A model generated the notes under the pieces. That model was not told the DNA's origin and did no database searches. It saw only the letters and a list, made by a program, of their open reading frames with translations. The position numbers and the translations under genes were made by a program. Positions 7,430-12,788 of a DNA stretch of 41,916 nucleotides are shown piece after piece; position 1 is the stretch's first letter, and every line of letters begins with the position of its first letter. This DNA is from Gammaproteobacteria bacterium. GTDB lineage: Bacteria; Pseudomonadota; Gammaproteobacteria; Magnimaribacterales; TMED112. Location: positions 48,927-90,842 of the forward strand of contig PBBW01000005.1 in assembly GCA_002716745.1 (NCBI GenBank), in the 5' to 3' direction.

Positions 7430-7458
7430 CTTAAAACATACCTAAGTGCGCTTCATAA

Positions 7459-7486
7459 TTGATTATAATCATAGTTTTGGTATAGT
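7459..7486 (+). promoter_or_regulatory. Putative sigma70 promoter (TTGATT-16 nt-TATAGT, extended TG) overlapped by the perfect palindrome TGATTATAATCA, a possible Fur/Zur-family operator
   Basis: Palindrome 7460-7471; -35 at 7459-7464; TG at 7478-7479; -10 at 7481-7486; ATG 7 nt downstream. Confidence 0.45.
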
Positions 7487-7493
7487 CTGCCTT

Positions 7494-7760
7494 ATGTTTA
7501 ATGCCCAACTAAAACTACTGGTTGCAATTTTCTTTGCTTCAGCCCTTAGCGCAGAGCCGTTGGTACATGATCACCATGATCATGATGAGGCTGTTAAAAT
7601 TGAGTGCCTTGCATGTGAGAATTCTTTTTCATTTGAAATTACTGATACAACTAAAGAAACCTTTAGTCTACCTTTTTCTAATAAAAGCGTATTAATAGAT
7701 CAAAAAATTGAATCAATTGAAGTTCCAATCTCCAATTCTAGAGCGCCTCCTAGAATTTAA
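7494..7760 (+). CDS. Small exported leader protein with His-rich patch, CxxC and C-terminal RAPP arrest motif (DUF2946/CruR/CutF-like)
   Basis: 88 aa from ATG 7494: signal peptide ending ALSA, HDHHDHDE, CLAC, then 41 residues, then RAPP-RI-stop; lies directly upstream of a TonB receptor. Confidence 0.8.
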   Translation: MFNAQLKLLVAIFFASALSAEPLVHDHHDHDEAVKIECLACENSFSFEITDTTKETFSLPFSNKSVLIDQKIESIEVPISNSRAPPRI

Positions 7761-7800
7761 GTTCTTTCACAAAATAATTTAATTTTTTTTAATAGGAGGT
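7745..7800 (+). promoter_or_regulatory. Putative anti-SD/SD pairing controlling translation of the TonB receptor
   Basis: GCCTCCTA (7745-7752, inside the A-P-P-R codons) can pair with TAGGAGGT (7793-7800, the receptor SD): 7 Watson-Crick pairs plus 1 G-U. Confidence 0.55.
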
Positions 7801-7807
7801 AATCAAA

Positions 7808-10111
7808 ATGAAAAAAATATTAACAGTTTTAATTTTTATGGCGACACTCAACTTAGTTGCCCAAGAAGTCGAAGAAGTAGTTGTTGTATCTTCACTTACA
7901 GATGCAAATGGCCAATTAAGTGAAATTGGCGATCCAATTCATGTGGTCAGTGGAGAAGATTTAGACGCATCGGCTACTCAAAGTTTAGGTGAGTCAATTG
8001 ACGAATTACTTGGAGTATCATCTGTAGATTATGGTGCTGCAGTTGGCCAACCTGTTATTCGTGGTTTATTAGATGGTAGAGTCAAGATACTAAGAAATGG
8101 TCTTAGCGTTGCAGACGTAGCAGGTATGGGGGCAGATCACCTAAATGAAGTTGATCTTTTTAATGTTCAACAAATCGAAATTATAAGAGGACCATCATCC
8201 TTGCTTTATTCAAAAGGTTCGATTGGTGGTGTTATAAATATCATTGACAATACTATTGCACAACGGGACTTTGATTCACAAAAAGTTAGTCTTGGTCTTG
8301 AGGCTCAAACTGTAAATGAAGGTGATTCTAAAAATTTTTCTTATGAAAATAATTTTAATGGAATAAATTTCAGCGTTTCTTACAAAGACTCACAATTTGG
8401 TAATTACGAAATACCTAATGGAGCAATCATTCATTCCGAAGATGAGCATGACGATCATGGCGATGAAGATCATGGCGATGAGCACGACGAGCACGAAGAA
8501 GATATGTCTGTTTTAGCTAACTCAGATTTTGGATCTACCACTTCAAGAATTGGTGTTTCAAGAACTGGTGACTGGGGCTACTTTGGAATTTCACTTGAGG
8601 ATCAAGAAACTGTATATGGCATTCCTTTTCATGGTGATGAGCACGGTGATGAGCACGGTGATGAGCACGGTGATGAACATGGTGATGAGCACGGTGATGA
8701 GCATGAAGGAGAAAGAATTTACGCTTTTACTGACTCTCAAGCAGTGAATTTAAGAGGTGGATTCATTGTCAATAATAGTATGTTGAATGGCATTGATTAT
8801 TTTTACAGAGATACAGACTATTCATTTTCTGAGCAGCATGCCGAAGAAGAAGGTCATGAAGAAGAAGGTCATGAAGACGAAGGTCATGACGATCATGGGC
8901 ATGAAGAAGGACCAACAGTGTTTAATAATCAAGCACAAGAATTTGGTGCCATTTTTGATTTTGCTGTTTCTGGAAACGTAAACTCATCTAAAGTTATGGT
9001 GAATTATCTTGCAATGGATGAATCAATAGTAGGGCACGAAGCTTTTATGGATCCTGTTGAAAGTGAAAGTTTTAACATTGGATATTATGTTAGCAGAAAC
9101 CTTCCTGGGGACTTTGACTTAGATTTAGGTTTTAGATATGACCAAATAAATAGAAAAGGTTCAGTAACTGAAGAACATCATGAGGAAGAAGGTCATGACG
9201 ATCACGGTGACGAAGATCATGGCGATGAGCATGATGAAGACCATGAAGAAATGGAAGTAGAATACTTTGATAAAGACTTTGATGAATTAAGTTTTTCAGC
9301 AAGCCTCAATAAGCAATTAAATGATTCTATGGTGGTTAATTTTAGCTTTTCTAGTGTTGCAAACGCACCATCAAGTACAGCAATGGCTATGAATGGACCG
9401 CACTTAGCTCGTGGCAGATTTGAAACTGGTGATGTAAACCTTTCAGCGGAGAGAGCTTCCAACTTTGAAGGCACATTGTTTTATAATGATGGAGATTATT
9501 TTGGGCAATTTACTTTATTTCAAAATAGTATTGCTGATTATATTTATCTTCAAGACGAGTTAGAGCATCACGACGAGGATCATGGTGATGAAGATCATGA
9601 TGAGCATGGTGATGAAGATCATGATGAGCATGGTGATGAGCACGGAAATTTAATCCATGCCGATTTTCTTCAACAAGATGCTGATTTTAATGGTTACGAA
9701 TTTGAATTTGGTAGAAGGTTTAAACTTGCGTCGGGAGAGCTAGAGGTAAGTTATGGTAGAGATGTAGTGAATGGTGAGTTTTCTAACGGAGAAAATGTTC
9801 CAAGAATTGTCCCTGCAAGAAATCTTTACAATTTGTCATATGTTGGTGGGGATCTAAGTTTAAATCTTACCCTTAAGGATGTAGAAGCTCAAAAAGACAT
9901 TGGTGATGGTGAAACAGCCACTGATGGATATAAGATGCTTAATCTTTTAGCAATGAGAAATTTTAATCTTTCATCAGGCAATAATCTGAAAGTATCAGTA
10001 TTTGCTAATAATATTCTCGATGAGGTTGGAAGAAATCATGCATCATATGTTAAAGATGAGGTCCCACTTCCGGGATTGAATTTTGGTGTCAAATTTAGAC
10101 TAGATTTTTAA
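7808..10111 (+). CDS. TonB-dependent receptor, ZnuD-like (Zn or other divalent metal uptake), with five His/Asp/Glu-rich loops
   Basis: Strong SD AGGAGGT; signal peptide; plug motifs QPVIRGL, IEIIRGPSSLLY..GSIGGVIN; YGIPFH; GPHLA; RNHASYVKD; terminal Phe. Confidence 0.88.
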   Translation: MKKILTVLIFMATLNLVAQEVEEVVVVSSLTDANGQLSEIGDPIHVVSGEDLDASATQSLGESIDELLGVSSVDYGAAVGQPVIRGLLDGRVKILRNGLSVADVAGMGADHLNEVDLFNVQQIEIIRGPSSLLYSKGSIGGVINIIDNTIAQRDFDSQKVSLGLEAQTVNEGDSKNFSYENNFNGINFSVSYKDSQFGNYEIPNGAIIHSEDEHDDHGDEDHGDEHDEHEEDMSVLANSDFGSTTSRIGVSRTGDWGYFGISLEDQETVYGIPFHGDEHGDEHGDEHGDEHGDEHGDEHEGERIYAFTDSQAVNLRGGFIVNNSMLNGIDYFYRDTDYSFSEQHAEEEGHEEEGHEDEGHDDHGHEEGPTVFNNQAQEFGAIFDFAVSGNVNSSKVMVNYLAMDESIVGHEAFMDPVESESFNIGYYVSRNLPGDFDLDLGFRYDQINRKGSVTEEHHEEEGHDDHGDEDHGDEHDEDHEEMEVEYFDKDFDELSFSASLNKQLNDSMVVNFSFSSVANAPSSTAMAMNGPHLARGRFETGDVNLSAERASNFEGTLFYNDGDYFGQFTLFQNSIADYIYLQDELEHHDEDHGDEDHDEHGDEDHDEHGDEHGNLIHADFLQQDADFNGYEFEFGRRFKLASGELEVSYGRDVVNGEFSNGENVPRIVPARNLYNLSYVGGDLSLNLTLKDVEAQKDIGDGETATDGYKMLNLLAMRNFNLSSGNNLKVSVFANNILDEVGRNHASYVKDEVPLPGLNFGVKFRLDF
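8630..8701 (+). repeat. In-frame 12-bp tandem repeat CAYGGTGATGAR x6 encoding (HGDE)6
   Basis: Read directly from the sequence, inside the TonB receptor. Confidence 0.95.
9581..9640 (+). repeat. In-frame 24-bp tandem repeat CATGGTGATGAAGATCATGATGAG x2 plus a partial third copy (HGDEDHDE)
   Basis: Read directly from the sequence. Confidence 0.9.
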
Positions 10112-10118
10112 TTTCTTT

Positions 10119-10152
10119 TGGGAGAGGTTTCGGCCTCTCCCACACTCTTTTT
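10119..10152 (+). terminator. Rho-independent terminator after the ZnuD-like receptor
   Basis: TGGGAGAGGT-TTCG-GCCTCTCCCA hairpin followed by CACTCTTTTT. Confidence 0.8.
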
Positions 10153-10205: not shown

Positions 10206-12788
10206 ATGAAAGTGAACTATTTAAAAACCATACTTTTTGCATTCTTTTTTTATGGTTCTTTCGTTTCAACTGCTGATAAAGATATAGAAGAAGTACTGGT
10301 TACAGGTTCTTATATTAAAGATGCGGTAGATTCCATAGGCCCCCTAGAAGTCTTGTCAGAAGACGATTTTATATCACTCAATATAACGAATTTAGCTGAG
10401 ATTAGTAAATACTTAAATATTGCATCAGGGTCACATTTTCAATCAAATACTTTGGGCGGTGTTGATCAAGGCATGTCATCAATTACATTGAGAGGCTTAG
10501 ATCATGCATCTACTCTGTTACTTATTAATTCAAAACGACATACTTTTGCTGGCACTCCTTCCAATGAGGGCGAAGGGTATATAGATTTAAATATTATTCC
10601 TGAAATCTCTTTTAAGAGAATTGAGATTTTAAAGGAAGGTGCAACTTCGTTATATGGATCGGATGCAGTGGCAGGAGTTGTAAATTTTATAACACATAAA
10701 GATTTTAAGGGTTTGAAGATTCGTTTTGGAGACCAAACAACAACAAACTATAATCAAAAAGACCAAAATATAGGTCTGCTTTATGGACAAGAGTTAAATA
10801 ATTGGGATTTAGTTTTTGCTGCAAACCTACTTGATAGGGCACCATTATCTGCTTCAGAAATCCCAAATATTGCAGAGTTAGCATTAAGCGGTCTTGGAAA
10901 CACATTTATTACTACTGCAGCTGATGAAATAACAGAAGGAAGATACGAAGGTGTCTATGAAGCAAATCAAATAGTTCCTGATCCAAATTGTGTTGAGAAT
11001 GGTGGTATTTTGCAGGGGTTTTGTAGATTTCTTTATGGGACAAGATTCAATATAGTTAATACTGAAGACCACTCAAAATTTTATTTGAATCTGAGCAATG
11101 ATATTCATAACCTTTCATTAATTGCCTCAAATGTCAGAGTAATCGATAATCCTCAGTCACCCTCTTATCCTGCGTTACCCTACTTAACAAGACTAATTCA
11201 ACCAGGTGAAGGATCCTCACCATTCAATACACCAGTAAAATGGCGAGGCCGGCCATTAGGCTCACAATATGCTTCCCCATTTTCACCAAAAGACATAAAA
11301 CAATTTCACTTAAATTATTCGTATTTTACAAAAATAGAAAATATTGATTTTGAATTTTCTTTGTCTACAAGTGAGCATCAGAACAAACACAACAGACCAG
11401 ATATTATTGATTCAAGATTTCAAAGCGCAATGCAAGGCAGTGGCGGCCCATCACAGAACGAAACATGGAATATTTTTGAACCAGAGCTAAATAGTCAATC
11501 ATTAATTGATTATGTAAGAGGAGCCGAAATTTCAAATAAAACTGGAAGCTTATCTGTCTTTGATGTAATTGGGAGAACAGAACTATTTAATTTTGATTTT
11601 GCATTTGGCTCACAAATTAGTGATGAAAAATTAGATATAAGCTATAACGAGATAGCTCGTGCTGAATTTGATCGTGATGGAAAAATAATTAAAACAGCAG
11701 ATCTTTTTTTCCTTGGCGGTGGAAAAAATGTTTCTACAAATAGAAACAAAGTAGCATTCTTTTTAGAGGGAAGGACAAATTTAGTAGAAGTCATTGATAT
11801 AAGTTTGTCAGGCAGATATGAAGAGTCAAAAAATTACTCGTCTTTTGATCCAAAGGTTTCTATAAAATCAACATTTAATGAAAATATTTTTTTAAGGGGT
11901 TCATTTGGTTCTTCTTTTTCGATGCCATCAATGGCTCAAATGTTTTCAAGTAATATAAATCTTGGAAGTGTAAGAGATATTGAAGGTAACATCTTTGTTC
12001 GACAGGCTCAGATTGGCAACCCTGATCTCAAGCCCTCCACAGCTGACAATTCAAATTTTGGAGTTGTTCTTGATTATAAAAACAGAGTTTTTACGATCGA
12101 CTACTGGTTAATAGATTATAAAAATAGAGTTGAATCGCAAAGCTCACAGGCATTGCTTTTAAGCGATCCGTTTGGACCAAGTATTACTAGAAATGACGAA
12201 GGGGAATTAATTGGAGTTACTACAACTTACTTTAACGAAACGACAACAAAACTTTCTGGTTTTGATTTTTCATACGACGAAAATTTAATTCTGGAAGACT
12301 ATGGGAAGATTAATCTCTCTGTAAAAGGTACAAGTTTTATTGAATTTTTAACTCCTGAAATTGGAGCAAATCCGTCTTCAAATCTAGTTAATAGGGTAGG
12401 AAGGTTTAATTTTGATGCGAATACACACTCTATACCAAAGTACAGAATCAATTCATTTCTAAATTGGAATTATGATAACTATGAGGTTGCCTTAAATACA
12501 AGATTTATTGATGGCTATATAAATGAAAGAAGTATTCCTGAGAGTGCATTGAATCAAGGCTATAAGAATAAAATTGATAATTTCTTGGTTTTTGATTTAA
12601 CTTTTAGACAAAACTTCCCACAATTTTTTGACAATATGAATTTTAAAACTTCATTCTCAATAATTAATATTCTTGATGAGCAGCCACCAAAAATCTACGA
12701 TGCGCCTGATTTTAGTTTTGACACAAGAGTTCATGACCCTAGAGGGAGATTAATTAATATTCAATTTGAACTCGCCCCAAAGAATTAG
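10206..12788 (+). CDS. TonB-dependent receptor
   Basis: TonB box EEVLVTGS; plug ITLRGL...TLLLINSKR; IEILKEGATSLYGSDAVAGVVNFIT; GNPDLKP; SIINILDEQPP; DPRGR. Confidence 0.92.
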   Translation: MKVNYLKTILFAFFFYGSFVSTADKDIEEVLVTGSYIKDAVDSIGPLEVLSEDDFISLNITNLAEISKYLNIASGSHFQSNTLGGVDQGMSSITLRGLDHASTLLLINSKRHTFAGTPSNEGEGYIDLNIIPEISFKRIEILKEGATSLYGSDAVAGVVNFITHKDFKGLKIRFGDQTTTNYNQKDQNIGLLYGQELNNWDLVFAANLLDRAPLSASEIPNIAELALSGLGNTFITTAADEITEGRYEGVYEANQIVPDPNCVENGGILQGFCRFLYGTRFNIVNTEDHSKFYLNLSNDIHNLSLIASNVRVIDNPQSPSYPALPYLTRLIQPGEGSSPFNTPVKWRGRPLGSQYASPFSPKDIKQFHLNYSYFTKIENIDFEFSLSTSEHQNKHNRPDIIDSRFQSAMQGSGGPSQNETWNIFEPELNSQSLIDYVRGAEISNKTGSLSVFDVIGRTELFNFDFAFGSQISDEKLDISYNEIARAEFDRDGKIIKTADLFFLGGGKNVSTNRNKVAFFLEGRTNLVEVIDISLSGRYEESKNYSSFDPKVSIKSTFNENIFLRGSFGSSFSMPSMAQMFSSNINLGSVRDIEGNIFVRQAQIGNPDLKPSTADNSNFGVVLDYKNRVFTIDYWLIDYKNRVESQSSQALLLSDPFGPSITRNDEGELIGVTTTYFNETTTKLSGFDFSYDENLILEDYGKINLSVKGTSFIEFLTPEIGANPSSNLVNRVGRFNFDANTHSIPKYRINSFLNWNYDNYEVALNTRFIDGYINERSIPESALNQGYKNKIDNFLVFDLTFRQNFPQFFDNMNFKTSFSIINILDEQPPKIYDAPDFSFDTRVHDPRGRLINIQFELAPKN

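Follow-up and report, generated by a model that had tools for sequence, protein, structure and literature searches.

Can a few nucleotides of coding sequence specify both a translational arrest and the RNA switch that this arrest would operate? The question is raised by a locus in a 41,916-nt stretch of contig PBBW01000005.1 (assembly GCA_002716745.1; hereafter the window, within which all coordinates are counted) from a gammaproteobacterium of the order Magnimaribacterales, where a small upstream open reading frame (uORF) ending in the codons for Arg-Ala-Pro-Pro (RAPP) precedes the gene of a ZnuD-like TonB-dependent receptor. The original prediction held that the RAPP codons double as an anti-Shine-Dalgarno sequence for the receptor, so that a ribosome stalled on them would expose the receptor's Shine-Dalgarno (SD) sequence. 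Our data show that the pairing is present in the window and that predicted sequestration of the SD by bases which a stalled ribosome is modelled to cover is conserved across a family of such uORFs spanning the order. The interpretation originally given is borne out in part. On balance we consider it somewhat likelier than not that stalling unmasks the SD here, much as in secM-secA and cutF-cutO, with metal probably relieving the stall.

RAPP peptides have been described as a class. Toeprints are reported to place their two Pro codons in the P and A sites of the arrested ribosome, and the arrest to be refractory to elongation factor P (EF-P; PMC12992588). In the same report a screen of 52,895 genomes gives TonB-dependent receptors among the genes enriched downstream of RAPP uORFs, almost all of these uORFs having signal sequences, and the existence of uORFs of the kind seen here was therefore already known. 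Metal responsiveness has been reported for two arrest peptides: in CruR the RAPP motif is needed for expression of a downstream TonB receptor and copper relieves the arrest via a CxxC motif (PMC9426467), and stalling on CutF opens a stem-loop that otherwise covers the SD of cutO (PMC9973294; bioRxiv 10.1101/2025.02.05.636593).

The 3' end of the frame at 7494-7760 (+) reads AGA GCG CCT CCT AGA ATT TAA, encoding R-A-P-P-R-I and the stop codon. Within the R-A-P-P-R codons, GCCTCCTA (7745-7752) is complementary to TAGGAGGT (7793-7800) through seven Watson-Crick pairs and one G.U pair (7745:7800), which confirms the 8-bp complementarity that had been claimed. Folding of 7720-7830, proposed at that time as a check, returned exactly this 8-bp helix in both the minimum free energy (MFE) and the centroid structure, prolonged by three A/U pairs (7753-7755:7784-7786) and an inner A/U helix. 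Of the 40 nt that separate the two arms (7753-7792), 5 are G/C, which makes this stretch 87.5% A+U, in line with the A/U-rich loop that had been described. The idea that it offers few competing pairings did not hold as put, the loop being more than inert A/U sequence: in 24 of 27 representative loci the hairpin is stabler than its loop-shuffled versions (median z -2.0), the window being different in this respect. The features of the locus are collected in Table 1.

Table 1. Features of the uORF-receptor locus, in window coordinates.
Feature	Position	Strand	Basis
Promoter-like site: TTGATT, 16 nt, TATAGT, with TG; ends 8 nt before the uORF ATG	7459..7486	+	Consensus scan
Perfect 12-bp palindrome TGATTATAATCA, overlapping the promoter-like site, just 5' of the uORF	7460..7471		Read from sequence
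uORF, 88 codons plus stop, 88-aa product	7494..7760	+	Open reading frame translation and 23 aligned relatives
Footprint modelled for a RAPP-stalled ribosome (nt -14 to +15 of the P site), with anti-SD and stop codon inside it	7732..7761	+	Modelling assumption
RAPP codons AGA GCG CCT CCT; predicted arrest P site 7746-7748, A site 7749-7751	7740..7751	+	Sequence; arrest position from reported toeprints of RAPP peptides (PMC12992588)
Anti-SD GCCUCCUA, 5' arm of the hairpin base	7745..7752	+	Sequence and fold
47-nt A/U-rich intergenic region, hairpin loop and inner helix	7761..7807	+	Sequence and fold
Receptor SD UAGGAGGU, core GGAGG 7795-7799, 3' arm of the hairpin base	7793..7800	+	Sequence and fold
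TonB-dependent receptor, 767 aa, ZnuD-like, with many His/Asp/Glu-rich inserts	7808..10111	+	Pfam Plug and beta-barrel domains
Hairpin of 10 pairs (6 G-C) with a T run after it, resembling an intrinsic terminator; closes the two-gene unit	10119..10152	+	Terminator scan

The uORF product can be divided into a signal-peptide-like N-terminus (aa 1-20, read from the sequence as a basic N-region and a hydrophobic core ending A-L-S-A, with A-x-A before E/D-P), a His-rich stretch (aa 25-31), a CxxC motif (aa 38-41; nt 7605-7616), a poorly conserved spacer of 41 aa, the RAPP motif (aa 83-86) and a 2-aa tail. No Pfam or NCBIfam model matched it, with Pfam searched to E 0.1. Across 23 aligned relatives C38, R83, A84, P85 and P86 are invariant and one His is nearly so, and the remainder of the peptide averages 35% column identity. 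Family peptides are 85-95 aa long, and the distance from CxxC to RAPP is strikingly fixed at 40-42 aa, both in 24 of 24 loci and in 93 of the 108 scorable members of the wider family (with a peak at 41); the tail after RAPP has two residues in 82 of 114 wider-family members. The second Cys of the CxxC motif is kept in 20 of the 23 relatives. In the other three (L016, L024 and L026) the motif is replaced by CEYF, CEYT and CEYA, respectively, which may reflect decay or an altered mode of sensing; L024 and L026 are also loci in which the SD pairs outside the footprint.

A search with the single protein found relatives in 26 of 61 related genomes, and all 26 loci have a small reading frame of the same layout, 24 of them ending in RAPP and two in RDPP. 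With a profile built from the 23 relatives, matches extend to 204 of the 266 genomes of the order (51 of the 57 high-quality ones) and to 167 clusters among 1.84 billion representative proteins (E up to 0.001). A single-protein scan of metagenome contigs gave four close relatives and three further weak matches that were left unused. The RNA and DNA runs of the order are labelled marine or seawater. The uORF was always found together with the receptor.

Given the likeness to CruR, a member of DUF2946 (PF11162), membership of that family was examined at several levels. The window protein has no match to PF11162 at E up to 0.1, none of the 23 relatives matches at E up to 5, and no match occurs anywhere in the window's genome. 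Three of 117 wider-family members reach 17-18 bits, under the gathering score of 23.7, and an hhalign comparison of the 23-sequence family with 21 canonical DUF2946 proteins gave a probability of 21.6% with only 11 columns around SRAPP aligned. The CxxC metal motif and the C-terminal RAPP a few residues before the stop codon are features that our family keeps in common with DUF2946. The CxxC-RAPP spacing is fixed in both groups, yet it is shorter in ours (40-42 residues, against about 45 expected for DUF2946 and 43-47 in the RAPP- or RGPP-ended frames among 30 canonical loci), and the intergenic spacers and codons of those canonical frames also differ. The family thus resembles CruR and CutF in layout and falls outside DUF2946 by both Pfam and profile comparison, and because Pfam misses it, surveys based on DUF2946 would not count it.

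To evaluate the pairing across relatives, 195 loci were gathered, from which we removed seven that are not of the family (L027-L030 and L035-L037), three without a reading frame or start by our rule (L179, L193 and L195) and 21 that were duplicates, contained N or lacked flanking sequence, leaving 164 distinct loci. An SD counted as sequestered if, in the MFE structure, three or more of its 4 core bases pair within -14 to +15 of the predicted P site. Every one of the 164 loci retains GGAG before the receptor start (GGAGG in 103, GGAGU in 33, GGAGA in 27 and GGAGC in one), and this SD stands out because strong SDs are rare in the window's genome, where GGAG precedes the first ATG of 47 and GGAGG of 10 out of 666 long reading frames. 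The SD core is paired within the modelled footprint in 149 loci. The anti-SD is the CCNCC of the Pro-Pro codons in 85 of these (register +4; CCUCC in the window), GCUCC formed by Ala GCU and the CC of the following Pro codon in 36 (register +1), CUCU(U) of the last sense codons and the stop codon in 20 (register +11), and other footprint bases in 8, with registers differing between clades. The pairing expected in homologues was therefore found; its Pro-Pro form, on which the proposal of a single segment as both arrest signal and RNA switch was built, is limited to 85 of the 164 loci.

The median computed cost of opening the SD over the 164 loci falls from 7.0 kcal/mol in the free RNA to 2.25 kcal/mol once the footprint is constrained to be unpaired, with a fall of at least 2 kcal/mol in 83.5% of loci; for comparison, 30 other genes with a GGAG SD in the window's genome have a median of 2.47 kcal/mol, although this is a small set with crude start calls. 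In 102 of the 164 loci the SD lies 46-50 nt from the P site, and the family's intergenic regions are 32-65 nt long (most commonly 40-43), with 91% A+T between stop codon and SD. In silico, then, a predicted hairpin masks the SD and the modelled footprint overlaps its 5' arm, as an SD-sequestering switch would require. What the analysis shows, beyond the sequence features and the predicted fold, is the order-wide conservation of the layout and of SD sequestration. In L189-L195, which belong to one genus, the receptor starts with GTG, the uORF has CGC GCA CCA CCA and the SD is UGGAGGU, and the pairing is in the Pro-Pro register with a central mismatch.

Whether the pairing is maintained by selection was addressed by resampling synonymous codons in a set of 30 loci, thinned by their distances on the tree. 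In 22 of these the SD costs more to open than the mean of the resamples (binomial p 0.016; Fisher combined p 2.4e-4; Wilcoxon p 3e-4), and 27 have the SD paired with the footprint, compared with 65% of resamples (P 0.00055). Because the SD core is fixed by its ribosomal partner and cannot show covariation, we looked instead at the helix flanks and the shifts of register. In the GGAGU/GGAGC class the Ala codon is GCU, giving GCUCC, in 32 of 34 loci with two changes on the tree, as opposed to 33 changes at the Ala third position in the 103 loci of the GGAGG class, and CCT at the first Pro co-occurs with GGAGG in 61 of 62 cases. Pairing in the GGAGG class exceeds column shuffles only at positions l = -1 (0.58 versus 0.42), +5 (0.71 versus 0.60) and +6 (0.65 versus 0.40), and these delimit the same 8-bp helix as in the window. 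Together the synonymous nulls, the SD-class-specific conservation and the loop shuffles point to selection for the hairpin.

A number of results weigh against regulated unmasking, and several of them speak for a simpler account, in which the pairing is a by-product: any GGAGG some 45 nt past GCN-CCN-CCN in A/U-rich RNA would pair with it, amounting to constitutive damping or plain translational coupling (each passage of a ribosome through the uORF briefly opening the SD), and the arrest would regulate otherwise. First among these is the window itself. The MFE of 7720-7830 is -15.5 kcal/mol against -11.1 +/- 2.76 kcal/mol for 200 dinucleotide shuffles (z -1.59), 14 of which match or beat it; when the last codons are resampled synonymously, a fraction of 0.148 of draws has an SD-opening cost equal to or above that observed, and loop-only shuffling gives a z of -0.16. 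Of the 284 Pro-Pro pairs of the genome, 33 are CCT-CCT and 108 begin with CCT. Taken alone, the window's pairing is within chance, and the case for anything more rests on the family.

Codon usage in the family offers little support for the expected preference for CCT or CCC at the two prolines. Over the 164 loci the first Pro codon is CCA in 70, CCT in 62, CCG in 28 and CCC in 4, and the second CCT in 84, CCA in 67, CCC in 9 and CCG in 4; CCT thus stands at 38% and 51% against a local usage of 46%, with no overall enrichment, and on these counts a strict CCT/CCC constraint was rejected. Parsimony gives 0.18 and 0.16 third-position changes per row at the first and second Pro, versus 0.21-0.36 at seven control four-fold sites of the receptor, and 0.25 at the Ala codon, which behaves like the controls; constraint on third positions is at most mild. 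About 65% of synonymous variants retain pairing of the SD with the footprint, and much of the pairing consequently comes free with the amino-acid sequence; null opening costs are already high (mean 4.9 kcal/mol). The combined p values given above overstate the case, as the thinned loci remain related. Tests on independent pairs from a FastTree tree, with 2-10 informative pairs each, were in no instance significant: SD type versus CCT gave five pairs, about 2.2 in the same direction and none in the opposite (p at least 0.25), CCT versus GCT a median p of 0.125, and flank covariation (2-8 pairs) a median p of 1. Such contrasts are too few to confirm selection.

The structural and peptide data have exceptions of their own. 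Footprint pairing is absent from the MFE structure of 15 of the 164 loci, of which 7 have an open SD core, 4 pair it upstream, 2 downstream and 2 in a mixed fashion, and the SD stays masked in the modelled stalled state at some loci (5.3 kcal/mol in L003, 5.9 in L023 and 6.05 in L026); MFE predictions are also soft for RNA this rich in A and U. The terminal motif is RAPP in 152, QAPP in 11 and RDPP in one of the 164 distinct loci. These variants (11 loci with QAPP, two with RDPP) are awkward for an arrest-based mechanism, given the report that changing the Arg to Ala abolishes arrest in the RAPP peptides tested (PMC12992588), and arrest and induction in this family are in any case inferences and not experimental results. 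The QAPP loci form one clade (L139, L145, L146, L150, L153, L154, L156, L157, L159, L160 and L162), all 11 retaining CCT at the first Pro and a GGAGG SD, and the two RDPP loci, with Asp for Ala, are L006 and L013, the SD of L006 being unpaired with the footprint in the MFE structure.

Against a by-product it can be said that observed values lie above the synonymous nulls, that conservation at the third base of the Ala codon is confined to the SD class needing it, that the register shifts while sequestration stays, that loop structure exceeds shuffles, and that an unusually strong SD of a kind rare in the window's genome is kept throughout. Considering both sides, we judge it unlikely that the pairing is simply incidental.

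Another route from arrest to receptor expression is known from Bordetella. There, as reported for CruR, the ribosome stalled on RAPP would exclude Rho, and release by metal would lead to termination before the receptor; applied to our locus, Rho-dependent attenuation would make the SD hairpin secondary. The logic of the peptide is indeed that of CruR, with CxxC, fixed spacing, RAPP and a downstream TonB receptor (PMC9426467), a rho gene scoring over the family cut-off is present in the window's genome, which likewise counts against a purely translational switch, and the RNA is poor in G (the last 150 nt of the uORF have 16.5% C and 13.8% G, and the spacer 2% G). The spacer is, however, 32-65 nt long (47 in the window) and not 162 nt, and with 91% A+T and 6.6% C it is a poor candidate for a C-rich rut site. 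Attenuation moreover needs neither a conserved strong SD nor conserved sequestration. RNA-library contigs at 7532-8485 and 7589-7947, from two runs of two studies, span the uORF, the spacer and the receptor start; that contigs cross from uORF into receptor argues weakly against attenuation, as they lack relative levels. Being assembled, these contigs carry no levels, ends or strands and do not prove a single transcript. A scan of the region found no terminator-like site between uORF and receptor. We consider Rho-dependent attenuation in place of SD masking quite unlikely, and it could also act jointly with it. Contigs beginning near 7795-7811 (runs X2 and X4, from one sample) were considered as a transcript start and rejected, contig ends being no evidence of this kind.

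It might further be asked whether the small protein acts chiefly after export, in its mature form, binding metal in the periplasm as a partner to the receptor or as its chaperone, with RAPP having no regulatory role. A signal-like N-terminus, a His-rich stretch, a CxxC motif and the constant company of the receptor would all fit such a protein. Yet the stretch of 40-42 residues between the motifs is conserved in length and, one Cys, one His and RAPP excepted, not in sequence, and for this reason it resembles a spacer rather than a folded domain. RAPP is reportedly strongly excluded from proteomes unless used for arrest (PMC12992588), and CruR and CutF are reportedly unstable after export. A chiefly periplasmic role appears to us very improbable.

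In the stall-dependent unmasking that we favour, the uORF would encode a metal-sensing arrest peptide and a hairpin in the mRNA would hide the receptor's SD, with its 5' arm in or beside the RAPP codons. The nascent chain would hold the ribosome on RAPP with Pro-Pro in the P and A sites, and since toeprints are reported to place the Pro codons there (PMC12992588), the anti-SD would be buried in the decoding centre of the stalled ribosome; the strong SD, about 49 nt downstream, would then be free and the ZnuD-like receptor translated. Metal, most likely zinc, would bind the His-rich/CxxC segment, which is expected to sit near the tunnel exit, a fixed 40-42 residues from RAPP and the peptidyl-transferase centre, and would probably release the arrest. 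Termination would follow four codons later, the hairpin would re-form and receptor translation would drop. That ribosomes stall on these RAPP codons is suggested by the invariant motif and the published toeprints, zinc is a guess made because the receptor is ZnuD-like, and we infer that stalling induces the receptor, and likewise which metal acts and in which direction.

Comparison with known systems shows where the family stands among them. CruR (Bp2923, encoded 5' of bfrG in Bordetella pertussis; PMC9426467, with arrest described in PMC12992588) is, like our uORFs, a small exported-type uORF product heading a TonB-dependent receptor operon, with constant spacing between its Cys metal motif and a C-terminal RAPP 2-3 residues short of the stop codon, and the two would share the logic that metal shuts off an uptake receptor (proposed in our case). 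CruR is nevertheless longer (about 145 aa with 45 intervening residues, compared with 85-95 aa and 40-42); it has a GC-rich spacer of 162 nt and Rho-dependent termination where our family has an A/U-rich spacer of 32-65 nt and a strong SD in a hairpin, and its receptor is copper-linked whereas ours is ZnuD-like. CutF-cutO of Rhodobacter capsulatus is reported to share a Sec signal, metal sensing by the nascent peptide and a C-terminal proline motif whose stall melts an SD-shielding stem-loop. Its motifs are CxxxC and a PPP that EF-P can relieve, copper reportedly induces the stalling and so switches on a detoxifying oxidase, and its anti-SD lies in an intergenic stem-loop as opposed to within, or within a few codons of, the arrest codons. 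The expected polarity is opposite to that of CutF because our uORFs have RAPP and an uptake receptor as target.

SecM-secA, MifM-yidC2 and VemP-secDF2 likewise have an arrest near the 3' end of the uORF at which the stalled ribosome disrupts an SD-sequestering hairpin (PMC7897499, PMC10987492), although these reported systems monitor and regulate secretion or insertion machinery, compared with a metal receptor and a metal-binding motif in our family. ApdA, ApdP and the RAPP uORFs 5' of TonB-dependent receptors resemble it in that the gene under control is preceded by that of a small secretory protein with C-terminal RAPP (PMC12992588); for ApcA, ApdA and ApdP no SD-sequestering hairpin was predicted, according to their authors (PMC7897499). 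The main text of PMC12992588 makes no mention of a hairpin, mRNA structure, anti-SD or secondary structure, and its supplements may list members of our family. Supplements aside, we found in print no zinc-type member, no SD masking in the TonB class and no anti-SD made by arrest codons with shifts of register. The CruR authors state that no riboswitch was known for copper or zinc (PMC9426467).

Both metal-sensing arrest peptides studied so far, CruR and CutF, respond to copper, and this locus points to a third branch that is compact, A/U-rich, found in 204 of the 266 genomes of one order of abundant small-genome marine bacteria and coupled to a ZnuD-like receptor. It would combine the logic of CruR (metal relieves RAPP arrest and uptake is turned off) with the output of CutF and SecM (the SD is unmasked). 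Although speculative, it is tempting to go further and propose, as a possibility that we hold only tentatively, that bacteria of the order control a zinc-type outer-membrane receptor through a nascent-peptide metal sensor unseen by family models; that the arrest codons or their close neighbours form the anti-SD, with about 8 nt encoding both stall and RNA switch; and that the register of pairing slid among Ala-Pro, Pro-Pro and tail/stop codons as the SD changed, which kept the switch. If so, it would be the first zinc-responsive arrest peptide, and with a single Fur-family gene found in the window's genome it could be the main zinc control there. Confirmation would reveal cis regulation of trace-metal uptake in streamlined genomes without a dedicated regulator, a clean and small (~320 nt) natural module for force- or ligand-released arrest, and a case of dual coding in which an RNA helix shapes the synonymous sites of an arrest motif.

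The receptor itself is single-copy in the window's genome. Its best NCBIfam model is ZnuD (NF038289; E 3.5e-46), at 158 bits well under the curated cut-off of 950, and its nearest solved chain is ZnuD 4rdr (E 6.1e-32); it is thus ZnuD-like and not an equivalog, and a specificity for zinc is presumptive. Several long His/Asp/Glu runs with H-G-D-E-type repeats lie at 8400-9700 and may form surface loops that capture metal. An unusually high GC skew (0.249) is seen at 8001-10000.

On the upstream side, a weaker second promoter-like match occurs at 7431-7459, and because the consensus scan found 6 sites in the region where shuffles lead one to expect 10.7, a promoter-like site is weak evidence alone. 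A Fur-family repressor may use the palindrome TGATTATAATCA as its operator, in which case metal would also act on transcription. By eye, no conserved Fur/Zur-type box was evident in the regions 5' of the uORF in 23 of the 30 representative loci, and one FUR-family gene was found in the window's genome, which is 88.5% complete. No SD-like sequence precedes the uORF ATG (7494), 8 nt upstream of which the promoter-like -10 ends, and the uORF may be translated from a leaderless or very-short-leader mRNA.

Genes neighbouring the two-gene unit are not metal-related. A second, unrelated TonB-dependent receptor, which no uORF of the RAPP kind precedes, lies beyond the terminator at 10206-12788 and is followed by genes for an acid phosphatase and a major facilitator superfamily (MFS) transporter.

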